From assembly GCA_029259535.1 (NCBI GenBank), contig JAPHEF010000002.1, positions 11,308 through 75,307 of the forward strand: a stretch of DNA of 64,000 nucleotides. Reading direction: 5' to 3'. How positions within the stretch are numbered: position 1 is the stretch's first letter; every line of letters starts with the position of its first letter. The translations under genes and the position numbers were made by a program. Below, piece after piece: positions 718 to 38,744 of the stretch. This stretch comes from Candidatus Alkanophaga liquidiphilum. GTDB lineage: Archaea; Halobacteriota; Syntropharchaeia; Alkanophagales; B39-G2. The notes beneath the pieces were generated by a model. It saw nothing but the letters and a program-made list of their open reading frames with translations, searched no databases and was not told the origin of the DNA.

Positions 718-1067
718 AATTCCATGTTTACACCTCACTTTTATGGAACTATTAAGCCTTATAAGGGTATATCCACTTCTACCCAGTTGCCTTTAAATTC
801 AAGATGCACTTCTTGACAATCATTTTTCTCGCTCCCTTCGACATTCCGCACAACGTTTTGCGGGTATGTGAGGTATGAGAGGGAACCGTATACCCGCCTG
901 TTAGACGAAGTGTTTCATGCGAGCAAAATCTTTTCTGCCTCTTCCCTGTAAGCCTCCATTAGGGAATTCCTGAAATTTTCGCAGCCTCCTCGGTCAAAGC
1001 CATTAAGTCGCTGCGAGATATCGTTGAAATTTTGAAGTTTCTGCTGCCTGCCATTAATTGCTGCTAC

Positions 1068-2684
1068 TCATGACGTCAATATCTCCTCGAACAACTCCGC
1101 CTCGATTTCATGCATCATTGGTATCCCGGTGACTTCGGATGCGAGCCTGCTCAATGCCGCAATATCACTTCTATCTATCAAATCCAGCTTGAACTTGCGG
1201 ACGCCAGCGAGCAACTGCTTTAAGCCGAGTCCTATCCTCTCGCTAAGATATGTGTAAACACCAACCGCAGACCATGGTATTTCCTTACCTACCTTACTCC
1301 CATATTCATTTTTCAGCTCATCAGCGACGATAAAAAATCTCTCCGGGCTGGTGCCATATTTATCGGCGAAATCTCTCGGTAATCTGCCCTTTTCTGCGAG
1401 TTCCGTGAAATAGAGCGACTTCATCGCTGCCGTCAACGGCGACCTTCCCATTGTGATAGATTTCACGAAGGGTCCTTTGCCATTGTTTCCATCGAAATTG
1501 CTAAGCGCTATCGCCTTAAATATCTGCGTCTCGTTGATGAACCCGCCAGCCATGCTTATATCAGGCACGTATTTCCCCGCTCGCTCCAATATCCTTGCAC
1601 ACTTCAATACCTGCGCTTCTAAATATACGGTAGGCGTGCTCATCTCGTTCATCATCGGCACTGGACTCATACCTGTGCCGCCACCAGCGCCATCGAACGT
1701 TATATAATCCACTTTGGCTTCAGATGCCACTTTCATCGTCCATGCAACGTCCACAGGACGATAAGCCCCTGTTTTTATCGTTACGCATTTTGCTCCTATG
1801 CTACGAAGCCATTCAACATCTTCTACAAAACCGCGTTCCTCCGGGAATCCCACACGGCTGTGCCGCTCGAACGTCTTGAACAAGCCATCTTTGAACGCCT
1901 CTTGAACCACAGGGTCTTCAGGGTCTGGCAGCACAATATATCCTCTCTTCTTCAGTTCCAACGCCCTTTCAAGCGAAGATACGCGTATTTCTCCGCCTAT
2001 CGCCTTTGCTCCCTGCCCCCATTTCCTCTCTATTATATTCACTTCCAACTTGGACACCACATACTCATCCACACCGAACCTCTGGTCTTCTACATTTGTT
2101 TGCACCGCCACATCTCCGTATTTGCCGTCCCAGTATTCCTTGAAAAGTCTCACCCTCCGTTCCATCTCCGGCGATTTCGTCACTTTTCCGTTCGTGAATA
2201 CCGATTCTTTGTCAACACCGCAAACGTTCTCCCCGATAATTATTATTACTCCTGAGAGCGCAGCACCGATAGCAAGAGCATCCCAGTTGTTTCTTGCAAC
2301 ATCCGTAGACCCGAATGCGCCAGTTGCCAGCGGTATTTTCAACGGAATGCCCCCTATCTTCGATTCTATATCCACGTTATGGAACAAAGCGACATCCGGC
2401 TCCGGCTCGATGCCTTCTGCGCCTCGCAACCGCGAAAGGATGTTGAAGTCGGACCAATCGAGTCCATAATTCTTGTTCGACGCCGCAGTGCTCCATCCAA
2501 ACTGCTCTGGCTCCGGATACAATACCTCTCGTCCCCTGAACGCGCTCTTCCCGATTTCGCAGAGCACCGTGCACTCCTTCACGCATATCGGACACATCCC
2601 GCTCAGCGTATTCACGTCTCTCCTTCTCACGGACGTTCCCGTGGTGGACCTCGCATTCGCATATATGTCCGCCATTTCAATCAC
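1068..2684 (-). CDS. gltB: Glutamate synthase large-subunit domain 2 (FMN-binding central domain), archaeal stand-alone type
   Basis: 538 aa. N-terminal Cys cluster (CPICVKECTVLC), then an FMN/TIM-barrel region with GAGGGTG and FDGAGGGTGMSP motifs typical of GltS domain 2. Overlaps the upstream frhB-like gene by 8 bp, indicating an operon. Confidence 0.85.
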   Translation of the reverse strand: MIEMADIYANARSTTGTSVRRRDVNTLSGMCPICVKECTVLCEIGKSAFRGREVLYPEPEQFGWSTAASNKNYGLDWSDFNILSRLRGAEGIEPEPDVALFHNVDIESKIGGIPLKIPLATGAFGSTDVARNNWDALAIGAALSGVIIIIGENVCGVDKESVFTNGKVTKSPEMERRVRLFKEYWDGKYGDVAVQTNVEDQRFGVDEYVVSKLEVNIIERKWGQGAKAIGGEIRVSSLERALELKKRGYIVLPDPEDPVVQEAFKDGLFKTFERHSRVGFPEERGFVEDVEWLRSIGAKCVTIKTGAYRPVDVAWTMKVASEAKVDYITFDGAGGGTGMSPVPMMNEMSTPTVYLEAQVLKCARILERAGKYVPDISMAGGFINETQIFKAIALSNFDGNNGKGPFVKSITMGRSPLTAAMKSLYFTELAEKGRLPRDFADKYGTSPERFFIVADELKNEYGSKVGKEIPWSAVGVYTYLSERIGLGLKQLLAGVRKFKLDLIDRSDIAALSRLASEVTGIPMMHEIEAELFEEILTS

Positions 2685-3774
2685 CTGTTTGCAACGTAAA
2701 AGAATACGGATTGGTTAAACACGCTGAACAAATCCCCATCTGGTCTAGCATCATGCCGTAATTCCTCATCTTCTTATTAAAAGCGAGCCTTTCTATCTTT
2801 TTTATCCCCGCATCATCCAGCTTCTTCGTTTCTATTGCCCTTTTTGAAACACTTACGAGCTCCTCTCCCGCGTTTGTCTTGATTATTAATGAAGTGCATC
2901 CATCTGGCGAACCAGACGAGCCTGCGGAAACATCCGCAAGCTGTGCGGTGAAATCCTCGCATATCCTGCATGTGTCCCGCATGCAAAGTTCCAGTTCTTT
3001 AGTCGGAATACTGTGCTCTTCGTCCTTTGTAACCACCACGAATTTACCCTTTGAAACGCAAAACCTCTCTACCTCTTTGATGTTTATTCCCCGTTCTGCG
3101 AGGAACGCCACCAAATCACGATGCCAGAAAGCCTCGGTGCAGAAAAGTCCGATTAAGACCTTCACTCTGTCAAGCTCCAGAGCAGGGTCATGCAACGCCT
3201 GAAGCCTTCTCACCGCCTCTATATTACAGCCCGTGCCGACCATAGCGATATTTTCATACCCGCGGTCTATCGCCTCCCATACACCAAGAACAGAAGGACA
3301 GGCAGTGTATTTTGAACCCACGCCGCGCAAAACTTCTTCCGGTGTAGTGGCGACGAAAGGCTCCGCTTTCCAATCTTCTGTCCGCACAGCGACAACCGCA
3401 GCATCTATAAATCCTCTTTCCAACGCCTCACAAAGCATTGCAGTTATAGCACCGCCGTCCTGCCCCGCCTCTCTTACGCCTTTCTCTCTTGCTCTCGCAC
3501 TTATTATCTCTTTATAGTGTCCCAAGATTCGTCTCTCAGGACTGGATGCACGAGGGCTGAAATCACATACTTCCGTCCTCGGGCAATCCCCCTCACATAA
3601 ACGGCAAGCTGCGAATGAGCGGGGACAAAAACTGAAACAAAAGCCTTTTGACGCCGTCCCACCGCCGCAGCCCTTGTCAAACACCACTTCTTCCTCCTTA
3701 TACTTCTCGAAAGGTATGAACGCTGCACACGCACCACAGTAGCAGCACACTGGGAAGTTTCTAACGCTTGCCAT
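2677..3774 (-). CDS. Coenzyme F420 hydrogenase/dehydrogenase beta-subunit family protein (FrhB/FpoF-like); putative F420-dependent partner of glutamate synthase
   Basis: 365 aa with an N-terminal CxxC...C iron-sulfur motif, a GTGCN motif and FrhB-like C-terminal cysteines. Translationally coupled to the gltS domain-2 gene. Confidence 0.75.
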   Translation of the reverse strand: MASVRNFPVCCYCGACAAFIPFEKYKEEEVVFDKGCGGGTASKGFCFSFCPRSFAACRLCEGDCPRTEVCDFSPRASSPERRILGHYKEIISARAREKGVREAGQDGGAITAMLCEALERGFIDAAVVAVRTEDWKAEPFVATTPEEVLRGVGSKYTACPSVLGVWEAIDRGYENIAMVGTGCNIEAVRRLQALHDPALELDRVKVLIGLFCTEAFWHRDLVAFLAERGINIKEVERFCVSKGKFVVVTKDEEHSIPTKELELCMRDTCRICEDFTAQLADVSAGSSGSPDGCTSLIIKTNAGEELVSVSKRAIETKKLDDAGIKKIERLAFNKKMRNYGMMLDQMGICSACLTNPYSFTLQTGD

Positions 3775-3839
3775 TGACTTCCTTCCTCCTTTTTATCAAT
3801 ATTTCTCCTTGCCCTCCTTTTCATTTATATTAACTGCTG

Positions 3840-4112
3840 TATTTCCAATCAGGTATTAAGTGAAAATGGGCTTAAGTCAGCTGCTCCACCTAAAAGGGGT
3901 GGAGCTTGCCCGAATGCTAGGGCAACGAAGAGCTGACTAGGGGGCTCCGGAAGGAGCAGCCGCCCCGGGGGCTACAAGCACCTTGGAATGCATCAAACGC
4001 CCCAGTTCCAAGCACTGCTGGGCTTGGCAGGCTCGGTGTTGCCGTCGGGCAACTAAGCCGCCGGGGCAACCCCGAGGGGCACTAAACTCCTCATCGAGAG
4101 GAGGGTTATACC
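3840..4112 (+). ncRNA. Putative omega-RNA (HEARO-like structured RNA) of the IsrB element
   Basis: About 270 nt of GC-rich sequence, richer than its flanks, with several perfect hairpins: CTCCACC-TAAAA-GGTGGAG; long-range GTCAGCTG...CAGCTGAC; GTTGCCGTCGGGCAAC; CTCCTCATCGAGAGGAG. It ends at the isrB start codon, which is the canonical position of IscB/IsrB omega-RNAs. Confidence 0.45.
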
Positions 4113-5174
4113 GTGCAAAACCCAAGAGTTCCTGTAGTAGGGAAGGAAGGGAAGCCGAGGATGCCGACGAAGGCATCAAGGGCGAGGAGGTGGATCAAGC
4201 AAGGAAAAGCGATACCAAAGTGGTCAAAACTGGGAATATTCTATGTCCAGCTCACCGTGGCTGCGGGGGATGAAGCGCAGGATGTAGTGCTGGGATTAGA
4301 CCCGGGCTCAAGGTTTGATGGCGTTGCGGTAGTGTCCAAGAAAGAAGTGTTGCAAACAGGAATGCTTGAACTTCCAAAAGGCATAGCTAAAAAGATGGAA
4401 CAAAGAAGGCGGCAGAGAAGATTCCGCAGATACAGGAAGTGCAGAAGGCGCCCCTGTAGGTTCAACAATCGCAAACGCAAGGGAGGATGGATTGCGCCTT
4501 CGCAGAAGGCAAAGGTTGATTTTCGACTGAAAGTGGTAGAAGAGTTAAGAAAAATTTACCCAATTAGCAAAGCAGTAGTGGAGGATGTCAGATTCGACCA
4601 CTATCACAAGAGGGGGGGCAGGCACTTCTCCACCGTTGAAATAGGGAAGACCAAAGTGTATAACACGCTACGAGCTTGGTTTGGAGAGTTGGAACTCGTA
4701 GAAGGCATAGAAACAGCGAGGCTCAGAGAGAAATACAACGCCAAAAAAGCAAGAGATAAAAGAGAGCGCTCTATAAATTCACATGCCATAGATGCGTTGG
4801 TTATTGCGGCAAATGAGATAGGGTTAAAAAAACTAAAAGCGCCCTCATTCTTCGTCTGGAAACGGTATCAATATCCGAGAAGGCAACTCCATAAATTCCA
4901 GTTTGAGAAGGGAGGAAGAAGGAGGAGAGAAGGTGGAAGCATGAGCTTAGGTTTCAAGAAGGGAGACATCGTGTTATGGAAAGGCAAGTTAGCAAGGGTG
5001 GGTGGATATTTAGAATCCAAAGGAACAATTTCGCTGCATACTTTCGACGTGGACAACAAACGCTTTACGCAAAATGCAAAACCAGAGGATTGTATAAGGT
5101 TATTCAACCAGAGAATAATGTACACCGCAATTCCTCTCAGCTCTAAAGAGCTTCCTTGCGGCAGGAGGTTGTGA
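4113..5174 (+). CDS. isrB: IsrB-like RNA-guided nickase (IscB homolog lacking the HNH domain)
   Basis: 353 aa. PLMP-type N-terminus (VPVVGKEGKPRMPTKASRARRWIKQGKA). RuvC-I (VVLGLDPGSRFDGVAVV). Arg-rich bridge helix (RRRQRRFRRYRKCRRRPCRFNNRKRK). RuvC-II Glu (AVVEDVRFD). RuvC-III (SHAIDALVIAAN). No HNH (no C..C...H..N..C..C insertion). Confidence 0.7.
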   Translation: MQNPRVPVVGKEGKPRMPTKASRARRWIKQGKAIPKWSKLGIFYVQLTVAAGDEAQDVVLGLDPGSRFDGVAVVSKKEVLQTGMLELPKGIAKKMEQRRRQRRFRRYRKCRRRPCRFNNRKRKGGWIAPSQKAKVDFRLKVVEELRKIYPISKAVVEDVRFDHYHKRGGRHFSTVEIGKTKVYNTLRAWFGELELVEGIETARLREKYNAKKARDKRERSINSHAIDALVIAANEIGLKKLKAPSFFVWKRYQYPRRQLHKFQFEKGGRRRREGGSMSLGFKKGDIVLWKGKLARVGGYLESKGTISLHTFDVDNKRFTQNAKPEDCIRLFNQRIMYTAIPLSSKELPCGRRL

Positions 5175-5652
5175 AAATGGGGCATCTTCACTTTCTTCTC
5201 CCACCCATATTCTGTCGTAGTATCAACATTCGAAAAGATAGCCTCGTCAGGACCCGCTTCGCCTTCCAAGCCTTTCGCTCCCCTTGCATAGCCCTGAATG
5301 CTCAAGTGAGAGTAGTCCACAGGATATTCCTTATCTGCTCCCGCAGTTATCTCCCCAAAGGGCGTGGATACAACACCTCCCTTCCTCTGAACGATGCCAA
5401 CCAGACCTCACCTTTACAGCCGTCAATGCACCTTGTGCAAAGCCCGGACATCGGAACAACGTTCCTGGAACGATTGAACTTCCCTGTTGCATCATTAGCA
5501 TTCGGTCTTCTCAGATTTCCCATCTTATTCACACCCTTAAACATTTCGCCCAACTCGTTCATATAAACGCTTCGTATATGTTCCAAATGACGACAAACGT
5601 CATAGCTTGGCAGTATATCTGAAGTCCCTTTTAAATAAGGATAAAACCACAC
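5175..5652 (-). pseudogene. Truncated, frameshifted paralog of glutamate synthase domain 2 (N-terminal ~150 codons only)
   Basis: ORF 5347..5652(-) encodes GLCTRCIDGCKGEVWLASFRGREVLYP, matching CPICVKECTVLCEIGKSAFRGREVLYP of the intact gltB. ORF 4868..5320(-) continues in another frame with EAGPDEAIFSNVDTTTEYG, matching EPEPDVALFHNVDIESKIGG. Homology stops at about 5180, next to the IsrB stop. Confidence 0.55.
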
Positions 5653-5889
5653 ACATCAGCACGCCGAGCATGAAGGGCGCTTACATCCATGTTGAGGCGA
5701 GTTCGTGGGTATATCTTGCGGTCAGGGGCAGCGTGCTCAGCCCGACGGGGGCGCAGCTCGTGCCGTGCTGCACACTCCCGAACCCCCAAAACTTCACGGT
5801 GGAAGCCTCCATCTTTAGACGAGGGAAGAGGCCACACTATCGCCAATCCTTAACAAAAGTTACATATGTAATTCCTTAAAAAGAAACTA

Positions 5890-6132
5890 ATGGGTGGGAA
5901 GATGTCTATGAGGGAGAAGGAGAAAGCGGAAGAATTGATGACCAACGCTGATTTTGCGTTAGATCTGATGTTAGGAATAGAAAGACTAGCAAGAGACTTG
6001 ACGAACAAATACAAAGATATGTTTCCAGAAGACCCTACCGAGAAAGCAAAAATATTTTGTTACTGCTTAATAGAGGGGGCATCAGCCAATATATCCAACA
6101 ATGTAAAATCCCTTGCAAGAAATCTAAAATGA
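5890..6132 (+). CDS. Hypothetical small protein in a low-GC islet
   Basis: 80-aa ORF with RBS-like GGTGGGAAG upstream. Local GC is about 38% against a window average of about 56%. No family recognised. Confidence 0.35.
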   Translation: MGGKMSMREKEKAEELMTNADFALDLMLGIERLARDLTNKYKDMFPEDPTEKAKIFCYCLIEGASANISNNVKSLARNLK

Positions 6133-6244
6133 CAAAAGGAGAAGAAGATTGAAACTGAGGAACACAGATTAATGAAGGAGGTAGTCGTAGGTGAATTAAG
6201 GAAATTAGGTTATTCTGATATATCCACAGAAGAAATTATCAAAA

Positions 6245-6643
6245 ATGCCTATCCTACAATTTTTAAGCTCTCTATGGTTTAAAGAGCTATCAAGAGATTC
6301 AGAGTTGTTAAGAGTTCGAAAAATTCTGGGGGAGCCTGATAAACACGGCTCTAAATCGAGTAGACCTAAGGTTGATATAGTAGTGAAAGAAAATAACAGA
6401 TATCTGGCTTTTTTTGAAATAGAGCGGCAATTTTATCCGAAATTTTTTCATTTCGAGAAAAAACTAAAAGGTTTAGAAGTTGCGGCTATAAAAAATGATG
6501 CTCGGTTAGTTTTCGTTGTAAAAAGTAATAGAAGAAGTTTTTACAAACTTGCAGGAATAATCCTAGATGCAATTTGGAAAGTAGATTTAGAAGAAAAGAG
6601 GATAGCAGAGAAGATCGGTTGGGATGGTAGAAAAGAAATGTGA
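6245..6643 (+). CDS. Hypothetical protein in a low-GC islet
   Basis: 132-aa ORF. An adjacent upstream short ORF (6172..6282) sits in another frame, so a frameshift may be present. No family recognised. Confidence 0.35.
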   Translation: MPILQFLSSLWFKELSRDSELLRVRKILGEPDKHGSKSSRPKVDIVVKENNRYLAFFEIERQFYPKFFHFEKKLKGLEVAAIKNDARLVFVVKSNRRSFYKLAGIILDAIWKVDLEEKRIAEKIGWDGRKEM

Positions 6644-6932
6644 GCGCTGAGGTCGCCTGAACCACCATAACTCGCCGCACAGGCTCCACGCCTTCTTCCA
6701 CCTCAGCAATCCCAATGGCGGCTGTCGTTACGAGCATGCTCACTGATGTTACGATGATAGAAAACTGTGCGGCGATATGGCGTCGCTAAAAACAGCCACG
6801 CGTAACAAGCTCATAACTTTTTAAATTATTCGTCATATTTTTTGTAAACGTTATAAACTTTATTTGAAAGGGTTTGAAATAAATATTGAAGTCTCCGACA
6901 TTGCTTTTTGAGAAACTTCCACAGTAAAAGGG

Positions 6933-13419: not shown

Positions 13420-14010
13420 TTGACGGCGTTCGTCGTCGTCGCCGCCGTCTTCAGCTACGTCGTCCTCAACGCCGGCTTCTTCACCACCCAGAAGAGCAAA
13501 GAGGTCGTCCACACCGGCGTCGAACAAGCCACCTCCAGCATCGAACTGACCGGTGATGTCGTGGGTTACGGCTGGACTTATAACAGCACTGCGGAACGCT
13601 ACGAAAACACGCTCGGCACAAACCTGACTGTCGTCAAGTTCTACTTGGAACTAACCGCCGGGCAGAACCCTATGGACATGGACGGGCTTGTAGTCTCCTA
13701 CACCGATAAAGACACGCACGTCGGCAATCTCACGTATAACGCAAGCGCCACAGGCACCAGCATGACAGGCAGCACTCTTGGGATGAAGATGGGCGAATGG
13801 CATTATTCCATCATAACAACGGCAGGATACGGCGACAACGATAATCTGCTCGAGCGGGGAGAGAAAGCCGAAATAACCGTTACGCTACCGGGCTATGGCG
13901 TCACGACGGATGAGCAGTTCATAATAGAGGTCAAACCCGCAAGCGGCGCAACAATCTCAATAACGAGGAGCGCACCGTCGTCTATAGACAAAGTGATGAA
14001 CCTGCATTGA
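13420..14010 (+). CDS. flaB: Archaellin (flagellin) FlaB/ArlB, copy 1; 5' end uncertain
   Basis: Class-III signal peptide and archaellin N-terminal helix AFVVVAAVFSYVVLNAGFFTTQKSKEVVHTGVEQATSSIEL. The open frame extends upstream to 13330 encoding ...RRRRKGFTGLEAAIVL (prepilin-peptidase site), but has no in-frame ATG/GTG/TTG before the TTG at 13420. Confidence 0.75.
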   Translation: MTAFVVVAAVFSYVVLNAGFFTTQKSKEVVHTGVEQATSSIELTGDVVGYGWTYNSTAERYENTLGTNLTVVKFYLELTAGQNPMDMDGLVVSYTDKDTHVGNLTYNASATGTSMTGSTLGMKMGEWHYSIITTAGYGDNDNLLERGEKAEITVTLPGYGVTTDEQFIIEVKPASGATISITRSAPSSIDKVMNLH

Positions 14011-14022
14011 GGAGGTGGATGG

Positions 14023-14754
14023 ATGAGAAAAAATATTTTTAACAACAAGAGGGGCTTTACGGGGCTGGAAGCCGCAATTGTATTGACCGCGTTCGTGGTG
14101 GTTGCTGCGGTTTTCAGCTACGTTGTGCTGAACGCCGGCTTCTTCACCACCCAGAAGAGCAAAGAGGTCGTCCACACCGGCGTCGAACAAGCCACCTCCA
14201 GCATCGAACTTGCTGGAACGGTCATTGGGCATGGCTGGGAGTATGGTGAGGTCGTCGGAAGCATCACGGGAACTACGAACGCCGTTGTCGGAACGTGGAA
14301 CCGCAGTACCTACACGAATCCCGACAACTACACAACGTACTGGTCATACTACGCGTGGAACGATACGAACAAGACGCAGCTCGACTCCACGAACCTGACG
14401 GTGGTAGAGTTCTACATTCAGCTAACAGCCGGGCAAAATCCGATAGCGTTGAACAAGCTGACGATAGCATACACCGATAAGGAACTGCACGAGGGCAATC
14501 TCACGTATTGCGCTTATGGAAACGCCTCTAAAGGGAACATGACGATGGGCTGTTGGAATTACACGATGGTCCAAGGGGATTCTGATAACTTGCTGGAGGC
14601 AAACGAGCAGGCGAAAATCATAGTTTCGCTGCCGGACTACGGCGTCACTGCGAACAAAGAATTCACGATAGAAGTGAAGCCAGCATCTGGAGCGTCCATT
14701 GCGATAGTGAAAAGAGCGCCAGTCTCCATACACAAATCGGACCCGCTGTATTAG
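14023..14754 (+). CDS. flaB: Archaellin FlaB/ArlB, copy 2
   Basis: 243 aa. MRKNIFNNKRGFTGLEAAIVLTAFVVVAAVFSYVVLNAGFFTTQKSKEVVHTG. Canonical class-III signal plus archaellin N-domain. Multiple N-x-S/T sequons. Confidence 0.9.
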   Translation: MRKNIFNNKRGFTGLEAAIVLTAFVVVAAVFSYVVLNAGFFTTQKSKEVVHTGVEQATSSIELAGTVIGHGWEYGEVVGSITGTTNAVVGTWNRSTYTNPDNYTTYWSYYAWNDTNKTQLDSTNLTVVEFYIQLTAGQNPIALNKLTIAYTDKELHEGNLTYCAYGNASKGNMTMGCWNYTMVQGDSDNLLEANEQAKIIVSLPDYGVTANKEFTIEVKPASGASIAIVKRAPVSIHKSDPLY

Positions 14755-14764
14755 GGGGTGGAAA

Positions 14765-15322
14765 ATGAGGGCGAAATTGAAATTTAAGAATAAGAAGGGC
14801 TTTACGGGGCTGGAAGCAGCGATCGTATTGACGGCGTTCGTCGTCGTCGCCGCCGTCTTCAGCTACGTCGTCCTCAACGCCGGCTTCTTCACCACCCAGA
14901 AGAGCAAAGAGGTCGTCCACACCGGCGTGACGCAAGCCACGTCGTCCGTCGAGTTGCTCGGCGATGTTATCGCTTATGGGAACACTACCAGCGGTAAGGT
15001 TGTGAACATAACCTTCACGTTGGCATTGACAGCCGGGCATCATCCCGTGGATTTGACTCCCGGGAAAACCGTTATCTCCTACTACGACGCCGATAGATAC
15101 GTGAACAACGCTACATGGACGCTCACGTTCGTCGGGGACCAGGAAACGGTGGACAACATTTTGGAGTTTGGAGAGAAGGCGGAGATAAGCGTGAATACGT
15201 CGGATTATACCTTGGAAAGAAACGAGCAGTTCACCATAGAAGTGAAGCCGCCAGAAGGTGCGACGCTGGCTATAACGCGAACGATACCACCAAGTGTTGA
15301 CACTGTGATGAATCTGCACTAA
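14765..15322 (+). CDS. flaB: Archaellin FlaB/ArlB, copy 3
   Basis: 185 aa. MRAKLKFKNKKGFTGLEAAIVLTAFVVVAAVFSYVVLNAGFFTTQKSKEVVHTGV. The N-terminal ~60 aa are near-identical to copies 1 and 2; the C-terminus is divergent. Confidence 0.9.
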   Translation: MRAKLKFKNKKGFTGLEAAIVLTAFVVVAAVFSYVVLNAGFFTTQKSKEVVHTGVTQATSSVELLGDVIAYGNTTSGKVVNITFTLALTAGHHPVDLTPGKTVISYYDADRYVNNATWTLTFVGDQETVDNILEFGEKAEISVNTSDYTLERNEQFTIEVKPPEGATLAITRTIPPSVDTVMNLH

Positions 15323-15324
15323 CT

Positions 15325-15352
15325 ATTTTTCTTTTTATTTTTTACTTGGTGA
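15325..15352 (+). terminator. T-rich archaeal terminator after flaB3
   Basis: CTATTTTTCTTTTTATTTTTTACTT, oligo-T runs immediately after the stop codon. Confidence 0.4.
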
Positions 15353-15358
15353 TGCGCT

Positions 15359-16246
15359 ATGGGTGGTGAGATAAAAGTAACAAATCTTGGTCATTTGGAA
15401 GAAGAAATGAAGCTTCTAAAGGGGGAAATTAAGAAGATACTCATAGACATTCGGGAGATCATGAACAACTTAGAGAATCCTTTTAGAAATATGGAAGTGA
15501 TAAAAGAGATGATAATGAGCGATGAACGAATAGAGGTATTGAAGAATGACATTCTTAAGAAGATAAAAGAAGGATACATAAAACCTGAGGTTGATTTGGA
15601 CAGATTTAAGGAGGAGATATTAGAAAAAATTGAGGAGGAGGCGAAAGCGAGGCTGAAAGAAGTTGTTAAAGATGCTCAAGTGAAAGAAATTTCGCCGGAG
15701 GCACTGGAGGCGGTGAAGGAAGAGATTATTAACGAGCTAACAGAGAGTTTGGAAAAGTTCGTGGAGGAGAGGTTAAATGCTGCTATGGAGCAAGTGAGGG
15801 CCGATGTGTCGAGTGCCGAAGAGCTGAAAGAGGAGATTGAGAGGGCGAGGGAGCGTCTAAAAAAGGAAGTGGGCAGAGACCTAAGCCACGAAGAGGAGAG
15901 GGCGTCGCCTACGAGAGAAGAGCGTATGGCTATTTTGAGGGGTAGGGCGTTGGAGTCGGGGATTGACGTTCAGAAATTGACTGAGCTCATGCTCTGGACG
16001 GACAGAATGCTTTCAATTATAGGACGGGAGCAGCTGAGCCGCATCCTTGAAATCTACACGCTCACCGGGAACATGCCTGAGAGCGTCAAAGAGCTTATAT
16101 TAAAGATTTCAGAACTTTCGGATAAGACTCCCAAGCGAGAGGTAAGCATGAGGGATTGCATACTTGCGGTCTACCATCTTAACAAGGTATTACGGGATGA
16201 AGGGCCTGACCCTTTGATATTATCGATGCTTGAGTGGGGGGAGTGA
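15359..16246 (+). CDS. flaD: Archaellum protein FlaC/D/E family (ArlCDE)
   Basis: 295 aa. N-terminal coiled coil (E/K-rich) and a C-terminal domain matching the conserved FlaD/E domain (LTELMLWTDRMLSIIGREQLSRILEIYTLTGNMPESVKELILKI). Sits in the fla operon directly after flaB. Confidence 0.65.
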   Translation: MGGEIKVTNLGHLEEEMKLLKGEIKKILIDIREIMNNLENPFRNMEVIKEMIMSDERIEVLKNDILKKIKEGYIKPEVDLDRFKEEILEKIEEEAKARLKEVVKDAQVKEISPEALEAVKEEIINELTESLEKFVEERLNAAMEQVRADVSSAEELKEEIERARERLKKEVGRDLSHEEERASPTREERMAILRGRALESGIDVQKLTELMLWTDRMLSIIGREQLSRILEIYTLTGNMPESVKELILKISELSDKTPKREVSMRDCILAVYHLNKVLRDEGPDPLILSMLEWGE

Positions 16247-16722
16247 GGGTGTCGGAAAGTGTTATAACTGCGGCAATCCTCACTATCGCCTCCGTCATAT
16301 GCGCCGTTGCTCTGATAAATGTTTTATATCCCTCGGTGGTGAGCGTTGGTGGCTCGTTCATAACAACTTCTTCTAAATTGAGCGATAAAATAAAAAGCGA
16401 TATAGAGATAATAAGCGAGGGGAATACCACTGATGTTGTTTACGTATGGGTAAAAAACGTAGGGAAAACCGAAATTCCACAGGTTGATAATTCGGACTTG
16501 TTTTTTGGGCTCGTAGATGATTTTCAAAGAGTAACTTATGACGAAAGCCTCTCTACGTCGCCAAGCTGGAATTTTACCATTGAAAATGACGACGGCGACG
16601 GGCGTTGGGACGTGGGCGAGACCATAAAAATTACAATCAACCAAACGGCAACGCCTGGGGATTATTATGTCAAATTTGTGATTTACAACGGTGTTTCGGA
16701 TGAAGATTTTTTCTCGATATGA
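16234..16722 (+). CDS. flaF: Archaellum stator protein FlaF (ArlF)
   Basis: 162 aa. N-terminal archaellin-like hydrophobic helix (ITAAILTIASVICAVALINVLYP) followed by a beta-rich domain. Operon position after flaCDE. Confidence 0.6.
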   Translation: MGGVRVSESVITAAILTIASVICAVALINVLYPSVVSVGGSFITTSSKLSDKIKSDIEIISEGNTTDVVYVWVKNVGKTEIPQVDNSDLFFGLVDDFQRVTYDESLSTSPSWNFTIENDDGDGRWDVGETIKITINQTATPGDYYVKFVIYNGVSDEDFFSI

Positions 16723-16736
16723 GGTGATGCCGGGTA

Positions 16737-17243
16737 ATGGGCTTCGGGGCTCTAATCGCAACGATAGTCGCCATGACGCTTCTGGTCTCTGCGATGTATG
16801 TATTTGTGGCAGGGGGGCATTTCATGAGTGAGACGTTGAACTGTGCGGTAAAGGAGATGCAATCGTTGAAAGGCGAGCAGATGCGGACGAAAATTGAAAT
16901 ATCAGATGTTAATATCTCAAGCAATACCGACATGAACGTCACTATTAACAACACAGGCGAGGAAAGGATTAGGGAATTTTCAAAAATGGACGTCATCGTC
17001 TCCTATTATTCGCAGCGAGGAAAGGAGGTGCGGTGGTTGCCATACACGCAGAGCACACCGCCGAAAAATGATACGTGGGCAGTTGTTAAAATACGTCCTG
17101 ATGAAATGAACCCCGGAATCTTAGACCCCGCCGAGGCACTGAACATATGGATAAGATTAAGCTCACCGCTGGATACGAATAAGAGCGGCTGGCTCGTCGT
17201 TGCCACGCCGAACGGCGTTAAAACGTCTTCATACCTCGGGTGA
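16737..17243 (+). CDS. flaG: Archaellum protein FlaG (ArlG)
   Basis: 168 aa. N-terminal TM helix (GALIATIVAMTLLVSAMYVFVAG) followed by a beta-sandwich-like domain. Operon position between flaF and flaH. Confidence 0.6.
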   Translation: MGFGALIATIVAMTLLVSAMYVFVAGGHFMSETLNCAVKEMQSLKGEQMRTKIEISDVNISSNTDMNVTINNTGEERIREFSKMDVIVSYYSQRGKEVRWLPYTQSTPPKNDTWAVVKIRPDEMNPGILDPAEALNIWIRLSSPLDTNKSGWLVVATPNGVKTSSYLG

Positions 17244-29065: not shown

Positions 29066-30506
29066 AAATGGAGGAGGCAGCATACCTACCATTGGTGTTG
29101 ATCCTGACGCCAGCGGTCGCAGGATGCTTGGCGCCGCTCATCGGCAAGGTCTCCGAAAAGGGCAGGGACGCATTTTCGGTGCTCATGGAAACATTGACGC
29201 TCTTGATTGCTGTTTATGCCGCTTACGTCTGTTTCTCGGGCGTGGCGGGCGGTGTTGGCATCTGGGACTTTGCGCTGGACAGACTCAGTGCGCTCATCGC
29301 GCTGACAGTAACGATTCTCGGCTTCGCTGCAACGCTTTATTCCATTCATTATATCTCAGAAGAACCTCACCTTAACCGGTATTATGCATGCCTGCACTTC
29401 TTCGTCGCCGGGATGCTCGGCATGGTGCTTACGCAGAACGTCGCCTTCATGTATGTCTTCCTTGAGATTATGACGGTCGCTTCTTGCGTGCTCGTCGCCC
29501 ACCGCACCTACAAGGAGGCGGCGGAGGCTGGCTACAAATATATCGTGCTCTGCACCATTGGTGCGCTTTTCGTGCTACTTGGCGTTGCGCTCACTTATCA
29601 GCACTTCGGCACGCTGAGCCTAGTGGCGGTGGAGAAGTGGCGGCTGCTGACGGCGTAGTTCCGATGTTCATCGCTTTGAGCATAATCTTTGGCTTCGGTT
29701 TGAAGGCGGGCATAGTGCCGCTGCACGCTTGGTTGCCGGATGCACACGCCGAGGCGCCGTCCTCGATAAGCTGCCTGCTTTCTGGCGCAATGATACACAC
29801 CGCCGCTTATGCGATGGCGAAGGTTCTTTTCTCGTTATTTGCGGCGGAAGCTTTCGGCATGATCGGATTGTTATTGGTGAGCTTTGGCGTTCTGAGCATG
29901 ATCGTCGGGACGATGCTAGCGCTCGTGCAGACGGACATGAAGCGGCTCCTCGCTTACTCAAGCGTCGACCAAATGGGTTTCATACTGCTGGGCTTCGGCT
30001 TAGGCTCCGTCCTCGGAGCGATAGGTGCGGCTTACCACATCCTCAGCCACTGCCTCGGCAAGGGGTTGTTGTTCCTTTCAGCGGGCGCAGTTATCAAGGC
30101 AACCGGCACTCGCAATTTCAGAGAACTCGGCGGGCTCTCCTCGAAGATGCCTGTCACTGCCGTCGTTTCGATGATCGCAGCGCTGTCACTCTCCGGTGTC
30201 CCGCCATTTTCAGGCTTTATCTCTGAGTTCTTGATTTGTAAAGCAGCGTTCGAGGCTGGGCATCCGATTCTCGTGCTCATCATGCTCATCGTGAGCGTGA
30301 CGACGCTCGCATATCTTTTGAGATTCTTGCACGCGACGTTCTTCGGCGAACCTAACGGAAGAAGCGAGACGGCAAAGGAGGCTCCTGCAAGCATGCTTGT
30401 CCCGATGGTCATACTGGCGGCGCTTTGCATCCTCTTTGGCATTTTCCCGACGCCGGTGATTGAATTTGTTCGTGTGGCATGTGCCACGCTGTTGGGAGGG
30501 GTGTAA
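29059..30506 (+). CDS. Mrp antiporter subunit D / NuoL-M-N-like membrane subunit of energy-converting hydrogenase (MbhH-like); apparent frameshift near 29630-29660
   Basis: Two overlapping ORFs (29059..29658 and 29484..30506) in different frames together give a complete NuoN/MnhD-like protein containing GIVPLHAWLPDAHAEAPS and MKRLLAYSSVDQMGF. The junction is LSLVAV / AAADGVVPMF. Confidence 0.7.
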
Positions 30507-30926
30507 ATGTTCGAGAAGCTCATAAAGCTCAGCCGGAAAAAGTCGCCGTGGGCATTCCATATGAATACAGGCTCATGTAACAACTGTGACATTGAGATCA
30601 TCGCCGCTTTGACGCCGAGGTTCGACGTCGAACGCTTTGGCATCCTGCTTGAAGGTTCGGCGAGGCATGCCGACATTTTACTCGTGACAGGCTTCGTTTC
30701 CAAGCAGAGCGTAAAGCGTCTGAAAAGGGTTTACGAGCAGACGCCGGAGCCAAAGCTCGTGGTCGCTGTCGGAGCCTGTGCGTGCAGCGGTGGCATCTTT
30801 AAAGACAGCTACAACATGGCTGGTCCCGTTGACAAGATAATCCCAGTGGATGTCTATATCGGTGGCTGCCCGCCGAGACCACAAGCGATTATTGATGGAA
30901 TAGTTGCGGCGTTGGAGAAGCTTTGA
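30507..30926 (+). CDS. [NiFe] hydrogenase small subunit, NuoB-like (MbhJ/EchC-type)
   Basis: 139 aa. NuoB-family Cys motifs (GSCNNCDIE, GACACSGG, GGCPPRPQ). Confidence 0.85.
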   Translation: MFEKLIKLSRKKSPWAFHMNTGSCNNCDIEIIAALTPRFDVERFGILLEGSARHADILLVTGFVSKQSVKRLKRVYEQTPEPKLVVAVGACACSGGIFKDSYNMAGPVDKIIPVDVYIGGCPPRPQAIIDGIVAALEKL

Positions 30927-30946
30927 GCTAAGTAGGAGGTATAGAA

Positions 30947-32840
30947 ATGGACGTGATAACCGCAGCAATACTCGCAATTGCAATCCCGTTTGTGTTTGCG
31001 GCAATAGCTCCCGCCCTAAGCAAGGCGAGTCCGAAGCTTCAGGGCTGGCTCGCCACGGTTGGCATCTTGATCTCGGCGGTGCTCGTCGCTTGGATCACGC
31101 CCGCAGTCCTCAGGGCTAAGGGGCCGATAGTTGCGAGCTATGCATGGATACCACAGGCAGGCGTGCATTTCGCTCTTTACCTCGACCCTTTGGGCATTCT
31201 TCTCGCCTTGATTGCCTCGGGCTTCGGCTTCCTCGCCTTGCTCTATTCCGTAGACGACATGGAGCACGAGCACGGGCTTGGTCGCTACTATATGTGGATG
31301 CTGATGTTCATAGGTTCGATGGTCGGGCTCGTGCTCGCTGGCGACCTTCTCCTACTGTTCGTCTTCTGGGAGATGACCTCGCTGACATCTTATGGGCTCA
31401 TAGGCTTCTACAAGGAGAGACGTGAGGACGTGAGTGCTGCACTTAAAGCCTTTGTGCTGACGCACGTCGGCGGCATCTTTCTGTTATTCGGCATCTTCAT
31501 CGCGTATTTGAACACTGGAACTTTCCTGTTTTCGGACATTGCGGCGAAAGGCTTTCCTGTTGGCAAAGAATTCTGGGCAGGCGTCGCCATTGCTTCGTTC
31601 CTCATTGGCGCAATCGCAAAATCCGTGCAGTTTCCAATGCACAACTGGCTGCCGAGCGCTACCGTTGCACCTTCTGCCGTCACGGCGTTGCTTCATGCGG
31701 CGGCGATGGTCAAAGCTGGCGTCTATCTCGTTGCAAGAATGTATACGTTGTTTCCAGAGTTCATGGCAGCATCATGGCATCTCGTGGTCGTGCTTATAGG
31801 CGCTGTGACGATGGTAGTAGGCGTGATGAACGCCCTCGTGCAAACCGGACCTGAAGCGGCTTTTGGCATACCACACGATAAGCCAGATTGGCTACATGAT
31901 AACGGCGCTCGGCTTGGGCACGACGCTCGGCATCGCCGCCGGGCTTTTCCACTGTCTAAATCACGCAGTCTTCAAGGGCTGTCTATTTTTGTGCGCTGGC
32001 GCTCTAATTTACGCAACAGGCTCCAGAAGCCTCGACGACTACGGTGGGCTTGCAAAGAACATGCCGGTGACCGCATTCGCCCTCATCGTGGCAGCAGCTT
32101 CCATTTCGGGCATTCCGCCGTTTAACGGCTTCGTGAGCAAGTGGTTGATCTACAGCGCGGCGATAGATGCTGGTTACGCATGGGCGGCAGTCGTCGCAAT
32201 GTTCGTGAGCGCAATGACGCTCGCTTCTTTCGTGAAGGTTGTTCACTCAGCGCTCTTCGGACCACAGCCAAAGCGGCTTAAAGACGTAAAGGAAGTGCCG
32301 CCGACCATGCAGGCTACGCTCATAGTTTTGGCACTGGCGTGCATAATTTTCGGAATTGTGCCGAAGCTCCCGCTAATGATAATAGGGTCTGCAGCAGCAG
32401 CTCTCGTCCCCGGAGGTATAACGGCTACGTATTTCGGCGTTATCACCGAAATCGGGATTTGGGTGCCAACGGTGGCAACGCTCCTCATAATGGTAGGCAT
32501 GGTCGTGGGCGTGCTGCTGTATTACGCCGGCATGAGAGCTGCGCCGGAGAAGCCATCCGCCGAGAAGAAGCTTCCTTTCATCGGCGGTGAGGACATAGAC
32601 CCAGACGAGATGATTTTCTCGTCACACCACATGTTCACCGCCGTTAAGTCTTCGCTGAAGCCGTTCTACGGATTTGCGGGGCGTGGCGGCATGGACTTTG
32701 TGGACTACGGCTTTGCGGGTGTTATAGAAAGAGCATGCGATGCCTTTAGAAAGACACACACCGGCACTTTGCGCATGTATGTGCTCTGGTGTTTGATAAC
32801 GCTTGTAGTGTTAGCGTCGGTGCTGTTATGGTGGTCGTGA
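30947..32840 (+). CDS. Second Mrp-D/NuoL-M-N-like membrane subunit; apparent +1 frameshift at about 31845
   Basis: ORFs 30947..32125 and 31863..32840 in different frames. Frame 1 ends ...MNALVQT, and frame 2 continues the conserved (K)PDLKRLLAYHTISQIGYM motif. The DNA reads GTGCAAACCGGACCTGAAG where ACCGACCTG is expected, i.e. an extra G. Confidence 0.7.
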
Positions 32841-33304
32841 TGGCGGAAGACGTTGTTAAAAGGACTGCGGAGGAGATAAAGGAGCGGCTGAAGGGACATT
32901 TCATAGAATACGAGCTGAAGCCGTTTGCTAAGGGGAAATGTGTCTTCATGAGGATAAGAAAGGAAGGGATAAGGGAAGCTGCTGAGATACTATCTAACGA
33001 GTTTAGTGCGAAATTGAATACGGTTTCGGCGGTGGAGCATGCCTCCTTTTTCGAGATAATCTATCATTTTTCGCTGTGTGAGCGTGGCGTTCTCGTGAAT
33101 CTGCGGGTAGAGATAGCAAAGGATGAAAGTATGGACTCGATAACGCCGCTAATTCCGGGGGCGAGCTTCATAGAGCGGGAGATTCATGACCTCTTTGGCG
33201 TGCGTTTCGAAGGGCACCCAGACCCCAGGAGGCTCATACTGCCGGATGATTGGCCTGAGGGGGTATGTCCGCTGAGGAAGAGCTATAAGTTAGAAAGGAG
33301 GTGA
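32840..33304 (+). CDS. NuoC-like 30-kDa subunit of group-4 hydrogenase (MbhK/EchD-type)
   Basis: Start at ATGA overlapping the upstream stop. NuoC family signature (ERE..D.FG..F.GHP). Confidence 0.75.
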   Translation: MAEDVVKRTAEEIKERLKGHFIEYELKPFAKGKCVFMRIRKEGIREAAEILSNEFSAKLNTVSAVEHASFFEIIYHFSLCERGVLVNLRVEIAKDESMDSITPLIPGASFIEREIHDLFGVRFEGHPDPRRLILPDDWPEGVCPLRKSYKLERR

Positions 33305-33308
33305 GAGC

Positions 33309-34440
33309 GTGCCGAGATTTGCGACAGTTCCGATCGGACCTTATCACCCGGCATTAAAAGAGCAGGAGCTTTTCAAGTTAAAAGTGGACGGCGAAACCGT
33401 TGTGGATGTGGACATAAGGATAGGATATAACCATAGGGGCATCGAAAAGCTCTCAGAAAGCATGACTTATCATCAGATAACGTTTCTCGTGGAGAGGATT
33501 TGTGGGATTTGCTCTAACATTCATCCTTTGTGTTACGTGCAAGCAGCAGAAGCTATCGCGGGCATCGAGCCGCCCGAACGTGCTTTATACATAAGGACGG
33601 TCATCGAAGAGCTGGAGCGAATACACAGCCACCTCCTCTGGCTGGGCATTGGCGCTCATATTATCGGCTTCGACACGCTTTTCATGTGGGTCTGGAAAAT
33701 CAGAGAGCCCGTTCTCGATATCTTTGAGATGGTTTGCGGAAACAGGCAGACGTATGCAATGATGAAAATCGGTGGCGTTCGCAGGGACATAAAGGAGGAG
33801 CACAGGCCAATGATTTTGAAAATTATGGATGAGACGGAACGTGCTGTGAAGAACATAATAGACATGGTGCTGGAAGACCCAGTGGCGAGGGCGCGGCTCG
33901 AAGATGTAGGCGTGCTCACAAAAGAAGATGCTCGTAGGTATTGCACTGTAGGTCCAACGGCAAGAGGCTCTGGATTGAAGATTGACGTGAGGAAAGACCA
34001 TCCACATGCCGCATACGACCTCGTAGATTTCAAAGTTCCGGTGATGACCGAGGGCGATGTGTTCGCAAAGACCGTCGTGCGGCTCGAGGAGGTTTTAGAG
34101 GCAGTAAGCATAGTCAAGCAGGCGTTAGATGTGATGCCGCATGGAGAAATTGCGACGGAGTTCAAAGAGATGCCGCCGGGTAAGGGCGTCGGGATGGCGG
34201 AGGCGCCCCGTGGCGAGGACATACATTACGTGAAGTCGAACGGCACGAACATGCCAAAACGCCACAAGATAAGGGCGCCGTCATACGTGAATATCCCATC
34301 GCTGAAGCCGCAGCTCATCGGCTATGAGGGGTCGCCGACGCCCCGATAATAATAGCGGCGATCGACCCGTGTTTCAGCTGCACCGACCGCATCACCATCG
34401 TCGACCCGAGCGGCGGGAAGCCGAAAACGCTAAGCTGGGA
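33309..34440 (+). CDS. [NiFe] hydrogenase large subunit, NuoD-like (MbhL/EchE-type); apparent -1 frameshift at about 34325
   Basis: N-terminal Ni-binding RICGICS. The ORF stops at ...LIGYEGSPTPR*, but the next frame encodes VADAPIIIAAIDPCFSCTDR, the canonical C-terminal DPCxxCxxR Ni-ligand motif. The DNA reads GAGGGGTCGCC where GAGGGGGTCGCC is expected, i.e. a missing G. Confidence 0.75.
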
Positions 34441-34485
34441 CGCTCTCGTTTACCTCTCTCGGAAAAAATCAAGGAGGTGCGTGCG

Positions 34486-35427: not shown

Positions 35428-36022
35428 AATACGGGAGTTTGCTGAAGCCGTAAGGTCGAGTTTGAGTAGCCCTTACACCGTTCGTTATCCCTTTGAGCCG
35501 TCGCCGGCGCCTGAGGGCTTTAGGGGCAAGCCGCAGTTCGACGAGGCGAAGTGCATGGGCTGCGGCGCCTGCGTCGAAGGCTGCCCGACGGGCGCTCTCA
35601 CTCTGACAGATGAGGGTAACGTCAGAATCATAGAGCTTTTCTACGGACGCTGCATCATGTGCGGGCAATGTGTTGAAAGATGTCCGGTCGAAGCGATAAA
35701 GCTGACGACAGAATACAGCATTGTTTATACTGCAAAGGAAGAAGCGCTGACGTCAATCCGGCGGACGCTGGTGTGTTGTGAGATTTGTGGCACGCCGATA
35801 ACCACGTTGGAACACCTAAAATGGATAACAGAGAAACTTGGGGAATTAGCGTTGAGCAACTCGACGCTCGTGGCGGTTATGCAGGATTTAGCCTTGGGTA
35901 AGACGCCGACGAGGGCGCCGAAGGCGAAGGAAATCGACAGGAGCGACATCATCCGCGTGCTCTGCCATAAGTGCCGGCGGAGAGCCATGGCTGTGGACCA
36001 CGGCTGGAGAGCCAAATATTAG
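35411..36022 (+). CDS. NuoI-like 2x[4Fe-4S] ferredoxin subunit (MbhN/EchF-type)
   Basis: 203 aa with CMGCGACVEGCP and CIMCGQCVERCP motifs. Overlaps the upstream gene by 17 bp. Confidence 0.8.
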   Translation: MKLPYKIREFAEAVRSSLSSPYTVRYPFEPSPAPEGFRGKPQFDEAKCMGCGACVEGCPTGALTLTDEGNVRIIELFYGRCIMCGQCVERCPVEAIKLTTEYSIVYTAKEEALTSIRRTLVCCEICGTPITTLEHLKWITEKLGELALSNSTLVAVMQDLALGKTPTRAPKAKEIDRSDIIRVLCHKCRRRAMAVDHGWRAKY

Positions 36023-36080
36023 TTGCTAACGCTGCTACACGACTTAGTTGTGATAAAAGCCTTCCCTCCCTATTTTTAAT

Positions 36081-36743: not shown

Positions 36744-36795
36744 ACTGAAATCTCTTTCCGAAAACTTCTTAAAATGTCTCGTCTCATGAATTTCG

Positions 36796-38667: not shown

Positions 38668-38744
38668 GTAGCTACTTTGATGCCCAATTATCTTGTAGTT
38701 AGCGCTTGCAGCAGGGAGTTTCAATTCTCTCAACGTCACGAACA

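Follow-up and report, generated by a model that had tools for sequence, protein, structure and literature searches.

An Intact IsrB–Omega-RNA Element with Defined Ends in the Archaeon Candidatus Alkanophaga liquidiphilum

Does an open reading frame (ORF) of 353 codons, preceded by a GC-rich and apparently structured tract, form a complete RNA-guided nickase element in an archaeon, and if so, where does the element begin and end, what would its guide RNA address, and does it still move? The question is raised by a stretch of 64,000 nt from Candidatus Alkanophaga liquidiphilum (assembly GCA_029259535.1, contig JAPHEF010000002.1, positions 11,308 to 75,307 of the forward strand; hereafter the window, by whose positions all coordinates are given unless another locus is named), in which an initial annotation had proposed an IsrB-type gene with a candidate omega-RNA. 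To our knowledge, IsrB is the smallest known relative of Cas9, an RNA-guided nickase of which the protein from Desulfovirgula thermocuniculi (DtIsrB) is the only member studied structurally and in detail. We find here an intact and well-bounded archaeal IsrB–omega-RNA element that belongs to a family already known and is a non-autonomous chromosomal insertion of the IS200/IS605 type (ISC1-like, ISC1/IsrB). With a probability of about 0.85, we favor a reading in which this insertion encodes an OMEGA system with a guide copied from the flanking DNA and a likely role in restorative homing at the emptied allele.

Results

The Protein Is an IsrB without an HNH Domain

The ORF, isrB, starts with a GTG codon, lacks an in-frame start upstream of it and has a Shine-Dalgarno sequence, GAGGAGG (4098–4104), 8 nt before it. 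Its domains follow in the order PLMP, RuvC-I (with D63), arginine-rich bridge helix, RuvC-II (E157), a short linker in place of HNH, RuvC-III (H224 and D227) and a domain interacting with the target/transposon-adjacent motif (TAM; R317 and Q320). Among solved structures the best match by sequence is DtIsrB (PDB 8DMB, E = 1.9e-75), over the contiguous residues 4–321 and gap-free between RuvC-II and RuvC-III, whereas IscB structures match at ~1e-19 only and on the N-terminal part. The predicted structure gives the same order. In an AlphaFold2 model (pLDDT 81.8, pTM 0.80), which has a four-strand sheet plus helix at residues 5–47, a helix at 89–107 and a beta-rich C-terminal region, the top Foldseek match is 8dmb_P (E = 1.2e-33, TM scores 0.73/0.78); the IscBs come next at ~1e-20, 13 orders of magnitude behind, then RuvC resolvases, and folds of the Cas12f/TnpB type appear only at E > 3e-3. 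The IsrB-type ORF of the initial annotation is thereby borne out, as are the two checks proposed with it, a comparison with IscB, IsrB and TnpB and a structure prediction.

Pfam recognizes a single family in the ORF, RRXRR (PF14239; E = 2.9e-50), whose match at residues 6–164 covers PLMP, RuvC-I and the bridge helix. No HNH domain is found by Pfam even at E ≤ 1, and there is no room for one because only 66 residues separate E157 from H224; nor is a TnpB family found by Pfam or NCBIfam. The NCBIfam model guided_IscB scores 136.8 against a cut-off of 175 and matches only the N-terminal half (residues 8–163).

Across 29 aligned homologs, D63, E157, H224 and D227 of RuvC are invariant, and so are R317 and Q320, which align with R323 and Q326 of DtIsrB, the readers of G3 and A4 in its TTGA TAM (PMC9581776). 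The PLMP, RuvC and bridge-helix motifs named in the initial annotation fall on invariant columns of this alignment: LGLDPGS (D63), the arginine-rich segment 98–116, VVEDVRF (E157) and SHAIDALV (H224/D227). The N-terminal PLMP region, with P-R-M-P at residues 15–18, of which M17 and P18 are nearly invariant, aligns with the PLMP strand of DtIsrB. Judged by its sequence, the protein is an IsrB in which every residue known to matter is in place. The ratio dN/dS against three paralogs is 0.09–0.13, which indicates purifying selection on the protein.

A survey of homologs shows this IsrB clade to be widespread in archaea, including Asgard lineages, Bathyarchaeia, Methanoperedens and Thermoplasmata. 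Many homologs in the databases (e.g., P0027, P0041, P0069 and P0075) carry 50–70 additional N-terminal residues (MQTQ...KNYKNVGM...), which are almost certainly the result of gene calls running into the omega-RNA.

A Covarying Omega-RNA Forms One End of the Element

The tract upstream of isrB was initially described as GC-rich and structured, and both properties are evident: its GC content is 0.62–0.65 over 3900–4100 against 0.37–0.39 over the adjoining 3750–3900, and the fold of 3876–4112 has a minimum free energy of −118 kcal/mol (z = −4.56), with none of 200 dinucleotide shuffles as good. Its size had been put at ~270 nt; the scaffold in fact takes 237 nt, or ~257 nt together with a guide of 20 nt. 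Likewise, the stem proposed to close the structure over a long range exists, but as 7 bp (GTCAGCT/AGCTGAC), and the 8-bp form "CAGCTGAC" is not literally present, its eighth position being G/G. A covariance search, the check suggested for this RNA, gives a match to Rfam HEARO (RF02033) at 3876–4087 over the full model (positions 1–211; 74.6 bits, E = 1.1e-14), and this model ends ahead of the 3′ hairpin that contains the isrB Shine-Dalgarno sequence.

Comparison with homologs indicates where the RNA begins and how it folds. For 14 homologs, the sequence ahead of the gene can be aligned from an invariant GTCA onward and is unrelated before that point, and RNAalifold on this alignment finds compensatory changes in 22 of 48 pairs. 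From 12 of the 14 sequences we built a covariance model, R1, which matches directly upstream of isrB in 47 loci, so that the same structured RNA accompanies the homologs as the initial annotation would predict. Among these loci is that of DtIsrB (L030, 2719–2975), whose RNA was solved by cryo-EM (PMC9581776). R1 has a single site in the window (184 bits, 3876–4110). Across the resulting alignment of 50 sequences, 93.7% of the cells are paired and 38 of the 48 pairs show compensatory change, whereas sliding the partner by 1–3 columns as a control leaves 33–48% paired. Both of the pseudoknots known from DtIsrB find support in the covariation: pairing reaches 96% in the nexus pseudoknot, where four of the five pairs are compensatory, and 82% in the adaptor pseudoknot. 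In the subfamily of the window, the alignment has the adaptor pseudoknot out of register, so that it is proposed there by eye only. GTCA stands at the start of all 45 complete omega-RNAs, and all helices and pseudoknots can form in the window copy. Close paralogous copies differ less in the RNA than in the ORF (conservation of 99.6 vs. 95.4% and of 96.2 vs. 89.3%).

Two of the related loci hold additional matches to the omega-RNA. L028 (Desulfofundulus thermobenzoicus) has full-length omega-RNAs at 2751–2984 and 4840–5071, the second ~2 kb downstream, and L013 (a Sifarchaeum contig) has a 68-nt fragment on the opposite strand (6651–6718). These may be tandem elements or stand-alone omega-RNAs.

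Occupied and Empty Sites Fix the Ends of the Element

This lineage has at least three paralogous copies of the element (table 1), and one of them permits a direct comparison of an occupied with an empty site. The copy in L056, from another strain, is 96% identical to the window copy, and its flanks are ~99% identical to window 30283–42047, where the site is empty. With a slash at the insertion point, the empty site in the window reads ...CGACTTAGTT/GTGATAAAAGCC and the occupied site in L056 reads ...CGACTTAGTT/GTCAGCTA...GGTAGGAGGTT/GTGATAAAAAG. The insertion is thus precise, between window positions 36049 and 36050, directly 5′ of GTGA and without target duplication, and the comparison fixes both ends of the window element at 3876 and 5170. 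It is also a presence/absence polymorphism between strains. Within the window, the protein and the RNA each occur only once, and blastn of the element against a plasmid collection gives no match.

In the close family, each of the five independent insertion sites has GTGA right after the element. In more distant relatives, GTGA or TTGA lies a few bases past a conserved end motif resembling CTTCCTTGCGG; at the DtIsrB locus it is TTGA, the TAM established for that system by experiment. GTGA fits the NTGA/TTGA TAM of DtIsrB (PMC9581776) as well as the conserved R/Q readers. Subterminal hairpins are present at both ends, namely SL1 and a hairpin 18 nt from the right boundary, and there are no terminal inverted repeats. 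In relatives, both hairpins keep their pairing despite sequence change. The equivalent of the right hairpin is CTCCCC/GGGGAG in L013, ATCGCC/GGCGAT in L045 and TCCCCTGAA/TTCAGGGGA at the DtIsrB locus, and in L002 the stem is the same but encloses a larger loop. This layout corresponds to that of IscB elements, whose omega-RNA has one transposon end as its boundary and whose TAM is found past the opposite end (Meers et al., bioRxiv 10.1101/2023.03.14.532601).

Table 1. Coordinates of the IsrB element, its RNA and protein, its copies and its surroundings
Feature	Position	Strand	Basis or remark
Whole element, 1,295 bp, GTCAGCTG...GGAGGTT (GTCAGC start)	3876..5170	+	Occupied vs. empty site
Presumed guide segment of omega-RNA, TTAAGTGAAAATGGGCTTAA, flank DNA outside element	3856..3875 (approx.)	+	Copy comparison; DtIsrB guide length
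Omega-RNA scaffold (237 nt), the transposon end beginning with invariant GTCA	3876..4112	+	HEARO, R1 model, covariation, fold
Omega-RNA stem S1 (GTCAGCT/AGCTGAC, 7 bp)	3876-3882/3931-3937	+
Omega-RNA SL1	3883-3891/3897-3905	+
Omega-RNA SL2	3906-3911/3920-3925	+
Omega-RNA hairpin	3944-3948/3953-3957	+
Omega-RNA long-range stem	3962-3968/4061-4067	+
Omega-RNA nexus pseudoknot (GCCCC/GGGGC)	3999-4003/4076-4080	+
Omega-RNA candidate adaptor pseudoknot	3915-3919/4025-4029	+	By eye
Omega-RNA terminal hairpin containing isrB Shine-Dalgarno sequence	4087-4092/4098-4103	+
isrB ORF, 353 aa, GTG start 4113, stop TGA 5172-5174	4113..5174	+	Sequence, profiles, homologs, predicted model
Subterminal hairpin AGCTCT-AA-AGAGCT, other transposon end, 18 nt from boundary	5139..5152	.	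Conserved pairing
TAM GTGA directly 3′ of element	5171..5174	+	Five sites, DtIsrB TAM, ortholog
TATA-box-like TTTATATT in flanking DNA	3824..3831	+	Sequence reading; 25 nt upstream of presumed guide start
Empty target site of sister copy (L056, another strain): 20-nt guide match plus GTGA	36030..36053	+	Exact 24-nt match
Copy 1: window copy			Also in L055 and L057
Copy 2: between metallo-beta-lactamase gene and thrS			L001, L058
Copy 3: after ferredoxin gene			L056
Shine-Dalgarno-site locus	L001 5998-7075
Shine-Dalgarno-site locus	L002 1518-2600
Shine-Dalgarno-site locus	L003 3998-5075
11-nt direct repeat GTGAAAATGGG, left copy, inside guide	3860-3870	+	Flank not continuing gltB2
11-nt direct repeat GTGAAAATGGG, right copy (TAM plus 7 nt)	5171..5181	+	Ancestral gltB2 coding sequence (P-I-F-T)
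gltB2 N-terminal remnant (~residues 1-115)	5183..5652	-	tblastn; ortholog L065
FrhB-like gene	2677-3774	-
GltB-like gene with Glu_synthase domain	1068-2684	-
gltB2 C-terminal remnant (~residues 489-522)	962..1063	-	tblastn, 50% identity over 34 aa, E = 5e-6

The Guide Is Presumably Copied from the Flank

Similarity among independent copies begins exactly at 3876 and their flanks are unrelated, so any guide would be host DNA of the left flank. The guide of DtIsrB is 20 nt long (PMC9581776), and by analogy we take that of the window copy to be of about the same length; this sequence, TTAAGTGAAAATGGGCTTAA, is found once in the window at up to three mismatches. In the sister copy, the left 20 nt plus GTGA are intact at the empty site of the window, so that the L056 guide would address exactly the empty allele.

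Since the gene upstream is divergent, read-through transcription of the omega-RNA is excluded and a promoter in the flank is needed. We can only guess that the TATA-like box TTTATATT is a candidate archaeal promoter of the omega-RNA, with a transcript start near 3854, and it could equally serve the divergent frhB-like gene. The same intergenic region has an imperfect 19-nt direct repeat, CCTCCTTTTTATCAATATT at 3785–3803 and CCTCCTTTTCATTTATATT at 3813–3831 (84% identical, 28 nt apart), with a TATA-like box in each copy, and it may be a bidirectional promoter for the frhB-like gene and the omega-RNA.

Discussion

A Proposed Mechanism of Restorative Homing

In the mechanism that we favor, the guide copied from the flank and the 237-nt scaffold would together make an omega-RNA of ~257 nt that is bound by IsrB. 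By analogy with DtIsrB, the complex would locate double-stranded DNA in which a match to the guide is followed by 5′-NTGA-3′ (here GTGA, presumably read by R317 and Q320), form an R-loop, and nick the non-target strand at the single RuvC site (D63/E157/H224/D227), the target strand staying intact because the HNH domain is absent. The only sequence to fit both guide and TAM would be the joint left by excision of the element, which is TTAAGTGAAAATGGGCTTAA/GTGAAAATGGGG for the window copy and CGACTTAGTT/GTGATAAAA for the L056-type site (the circle junction being GGAGGTT/GTCAGCTG). An occupied site would escape, because the guide match there precedes GTCA, which differs from the GTGA TAM at the very G that R317 should read. 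The nick would then probably flag the emptied allele for repair by recombination with a copy that bears the element, as in the "restorative homing" of TnpB and IscB, and the element itself would be mobilized by a TnpA acting in trans.

No TnpA (Y1/HUH) is found among the 30 window ORFs scanned with Pfam, nor by a crude regular-expression scan for HUH and Tyr motifs in all frames of the window and 65 related loci; the initial annotation had likewise reported none. It follows that the element is non-autonomous, which is usual, as only ~1.5% of iscB-type elements lie near tnpA (Meers et al., bioRxiv 10.1101/2023.03.14.532601).

Several points weigh against the homing mechanism or the RNA on which it depends. 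The HEARO score is under the Rfam gathering threshold of 83 bits, so that a standard annotation run would miss the omega-RNA: a scan of the whole window at gathering thresholds gives no Rfam match, and HEARO is seen in E-value mode only. The promoter in the flank, on which the omega-RNA depends, is only guessed. Because the left flank is a rearranged junction (see below), an actual empty allele that today's guide would match may never have existed. Experiments have established homing for TnpB and IscB, and not for a nickase or IsrB (PMC13565253). Lastly, the absence of TnpA from the window and from within ~3 kb of any of the 65 related loci leaves current mobility unproven, and the insertions between hypA and hypB and between the lactamase gene and thrS recur unchanged across many samples, a pattern that fits either efficient retention or fixation and so would also suit an element that no longer moves.

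These last observations are the starting point of the rival explanation that survives best, in which the IsrB–omega-RNA has become fixed and is retained by the host without further transposition, either as a selfish, addiction-like module or for some host use other than homing. Besides the missing TnpA and the identity of the two insertions over many independent samples, the purifying selection on the ORF, the higher conservation of the omega-RNA than of the ORF between paralogous copies and the three sites at which the element end restores the Shine-Dalgarno sequence of a downstream host gene (see below) would all be expected of such an element. On the other hand, the catalytic residues are intact, unlike those of known domesticated, nuclease-dead relatives; the ends keep the hairpins and the GTCA and GTGA motifs typical of elements recognized by a transposase; and at one site two strains with ~99% identical flanks differ by the presence of the element, the junction being precise. 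We thus regard fixation as unlikely, while granting it some weight.

It is far less probable that the element is a decaying relic with a non-functional ORF and RNA. The pseudogenized and rearranged locus, the single copy in the window and the lack of a transposase might give that impression, but the ORF is full length, being as long as DtIsrB, all its functional residues are intact, dN/dS is ~0.1 against the three paralogs, and every RNA helix and pseudoknot is formable. Finally, an IscB (an HNH-containing double-strand cutter) or an HNH/McrA-type restriction endonuclease, to which the GenBank name and the guided_IscB match to the N-terminal half would point, is refuted by the absence of an HNH domain, in accordance with the score of that match below its cut-off, the short RuvC-II to RuvC-III spacing, the contiguous alignment to 8DMB and a far better fit to the IsrB fold.

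Comparison with Known Systems

The closest known system is DtIsrB–omega-RNA (PDB 8DMB; Hirano et al. 2022, PMC9581776). The two proteins have the same length and share PLMP, a split RuvC with bridge helix, short linkers that replace REC and HNH, and a TAM-interacting domain with an R...Q reader for an NTGA-type TAM. In both elements the omega-RNA lies upstream on the same strand, starts with GTCA, has the same stems with nexus and adaptor pseudoknots, and ends in a hairpin holding the isrB Shine-Dalgarno sequence; both hosts are thermophiles. They differ in that amino-acid identity is only 42–46%, the host is archaeal here and belongs to Bacillota for DtIsrB, the scaffold has 237 nt here and 262 nt in DtIsrB, with a shorter SL2 region here, and the TAM at natural sites is GTGA rather than TTGA. 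Moreover, the ORF here reaches the element end and takes its stop from the TAM, whereas that of DtIsrB stops in the end-hairpin loop ~35 nt earlier.

IscB (OgeuIscB, PDB 7UTN/7XHT) has a homologous core of PLMP, RuvC and bridge helix, a HEARO-type RNA (RF02033), and the same element architecture, in which the RNA forms one transposon end and the flank supplies the guide. It differs from the window protein in possessing HNH and cutting both strands, and the RNAs differ in that the HEARO model stops at 4087, without the Shine-Dalgarno hairpin, and gives the window RNA a score under the threshold of the family.

With the TnpB elements of the IS200/IS605 group (ISDra2, ISGst; bioRxiv 10.1101/2023.03.14.532601), the element has in common its non-autonomy as an insertion sequence, subterminal hairpins, the lack of terminal inverted repeats and of target duplication, insertion beside a short motif recognized by both transposase and nuclease, and a guide from the flank, so that the excision joint is the target. 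The motif-adjacent insertion without duplication is seen in the comparison of L056 with the empty site, and at the window site an 11-nt repeat flanks the element without abutting both ends. TnpB is of another nuclease lineage, that of the Cas12 ancestor; its RNA lies at the 3′ end of the gene, its TAM is 5′ of the target, and it makes double-strand breaks with demonstrated homing, whereas the window RNA is 5′ of its gene. Neither the WED-REC-RuvC-zinc finger fold nor the 3′ RNA of the TnpB/Cas12 lineage is found in the window element.

The element leaves the understanding of OMEGA systems unchanged. Its value is that of a well-delimited thermophilic candidate, the Candidatus Alkanophaga host being said to grow near 70 °C: its guide, its TAM and the two ends are defined, a natural target site is known in its empty state, and this IsrB is ready for biochemical tests. 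It also calls for a correction of annotation, since the identical protein (MDF2954542.1/WP_456486733.1, Candidatus Alkanophaga liquidiphilum) is named "RRXRR domain-containing protein" or "5-methylcytosine-specific restriction endonuclease McrA" in the public record.

The Element Lies in a Rearranged gltB2 Locus

The initial annotation placed the element between an operon and a disrupted paralog. The disrupted paralog is real, being the N-terminal remnant of "gltB2", a canonical FMN-binding glutamate-synthase-like gene with homologs at 70–90% identity; the remnant is frameshifted near 5359 and, next to the intact ortholog (L065), lacks 5 nt. The arrangement is less simple than supposed, because a C-terminal remnant (1063–962; the C-terminal ~50 residues) lies beyond the FrhB/GltB operon, where it directly follows the stop codon of the intact GltB-like gene. 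Between the two remnants, which are 4.1 kb apart, lie the IsrB element and the intact FrhB-like/GltB-like operon with its promoter region, so that operon and element occupy the place of the central ~370 codons of gltB2. TTAA is present at both junctions, and the arrangement of remnants, operon and element is the same in three assemblies. That a larger transposon with its end near 1064 had carried the operon as cargo was considered and rejected, because no matching end motif is located there.

The intact ortholog reads ...AAGATGCTCCTCCCCATCTTCAC/GGGAGCGCTC where the window reads ...AAGATG, a gap of 5 nt, and CCCCATTTTCAC next to the element. In this alignment, the insertion splits the Thr codon of P-I-F-T in gltB2 and adjoins an ancestral GTGA; the TAM at the window site is, on this comparison, ancestral host sequence. 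The 11-nt repeat was rejected as a target-site duplication, as its left copy is five non-conserved bases off the element and the sister copy in L056 shows no duplication at all. When the element is removed in silico, a 16-nt tandem repeat appears, TTAAGTGAAAATGGGC/TTAAGTGAAAATGGGG, with 15 of the 16 bases identical. The right flank (5171–5191) also forms an imperfect palindrome, GTGAAAATG-GGG-CATCTTCAC. Neither an empty allele of this site, in single-unit or tandem form, nor the right flank of the element has a match in the metagenome contigs of the Joint Genome Institute (JGI).

Small Leads at the Insertion Sites

The element boundary falls within the final two codons of isrB, the last sense codon and the stop, at 5169–5174 in the window, at 7057–7062 in L056, and also in L001 and L002. 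The stop TGA is formed by bases 2–4 of the TAM GTGA, that is, by host DNA, and since the TAM is obligatory, every new insertion provides the isrB stop codon. In DtIsrB-like loci, the ORF stops inside the end-hairpin loop, 30–45 nt ahead of the TAM.

At three of the five independent sites, the left flank plus GTGA rebuilds a Shine-Dalgarno sequence (GAGGTGA, AGGTGA and AAGGAGGTGA) that precedes, by 5–8 nt, the start codon of a host gene running in the same direction (thrS, hypB and hsp20). After insertion at these sites, the GGAGGT(T) terminus of the element assumes that role. With n = 5, there may be no more behind this coincidence than the presence of GTGA in the Shine-Dalgarno consensus.

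It is conceivable, though we think it rather doubtful, that the element has shaped its own insertion sites, as a nickase element adapted to operons that left scars of nick repair at the window site. This idea starts from the TAM GTGA being the 3′ half of the Shine-Dalgarno consensus GGAGGTGA. At the three sites above, the element would have entered the host Shine-Dalgarno sequence and replaced the lost half with its GGAGGT terminus, besides borrowing its stop codon from the TAM. At the window site, error-prone repair of IsrB nicks would have left as its scars the 16-nt tandem duplication and the missing central part of gltB2. If true, the scars at the gltB2 site would be the first natural footprint of a guide-RNA nickase on a genome. 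We treat the stop codon supplied by the TAM, the Shine-Dalgarno-like sites and the rearranged target as small leads rather than established findings.

Other Features of the Window

Upstream of the gltB2 remnant, a GC-rich patch (5650–5860; 0.60–0.65) stands out in AT-rich intergenic DNA. It was dropped as a structured RNA, since its fold is no better than those of shuffled sequences on either strand (z = 0.18 and 1.35), and its sole RNA-family match is HgcC at 17 bits. The related strain L057 diverges from the window over 5807 to 6640. The window is ordinary chromosome, not plasmid or virus; elsewhere it carries ribosomal protein genes, genes for an Fpo/Mbh-like complex and, at 13420–17243, a cluster of archaellin (Arch_flagellin) and FlaF-like genes.

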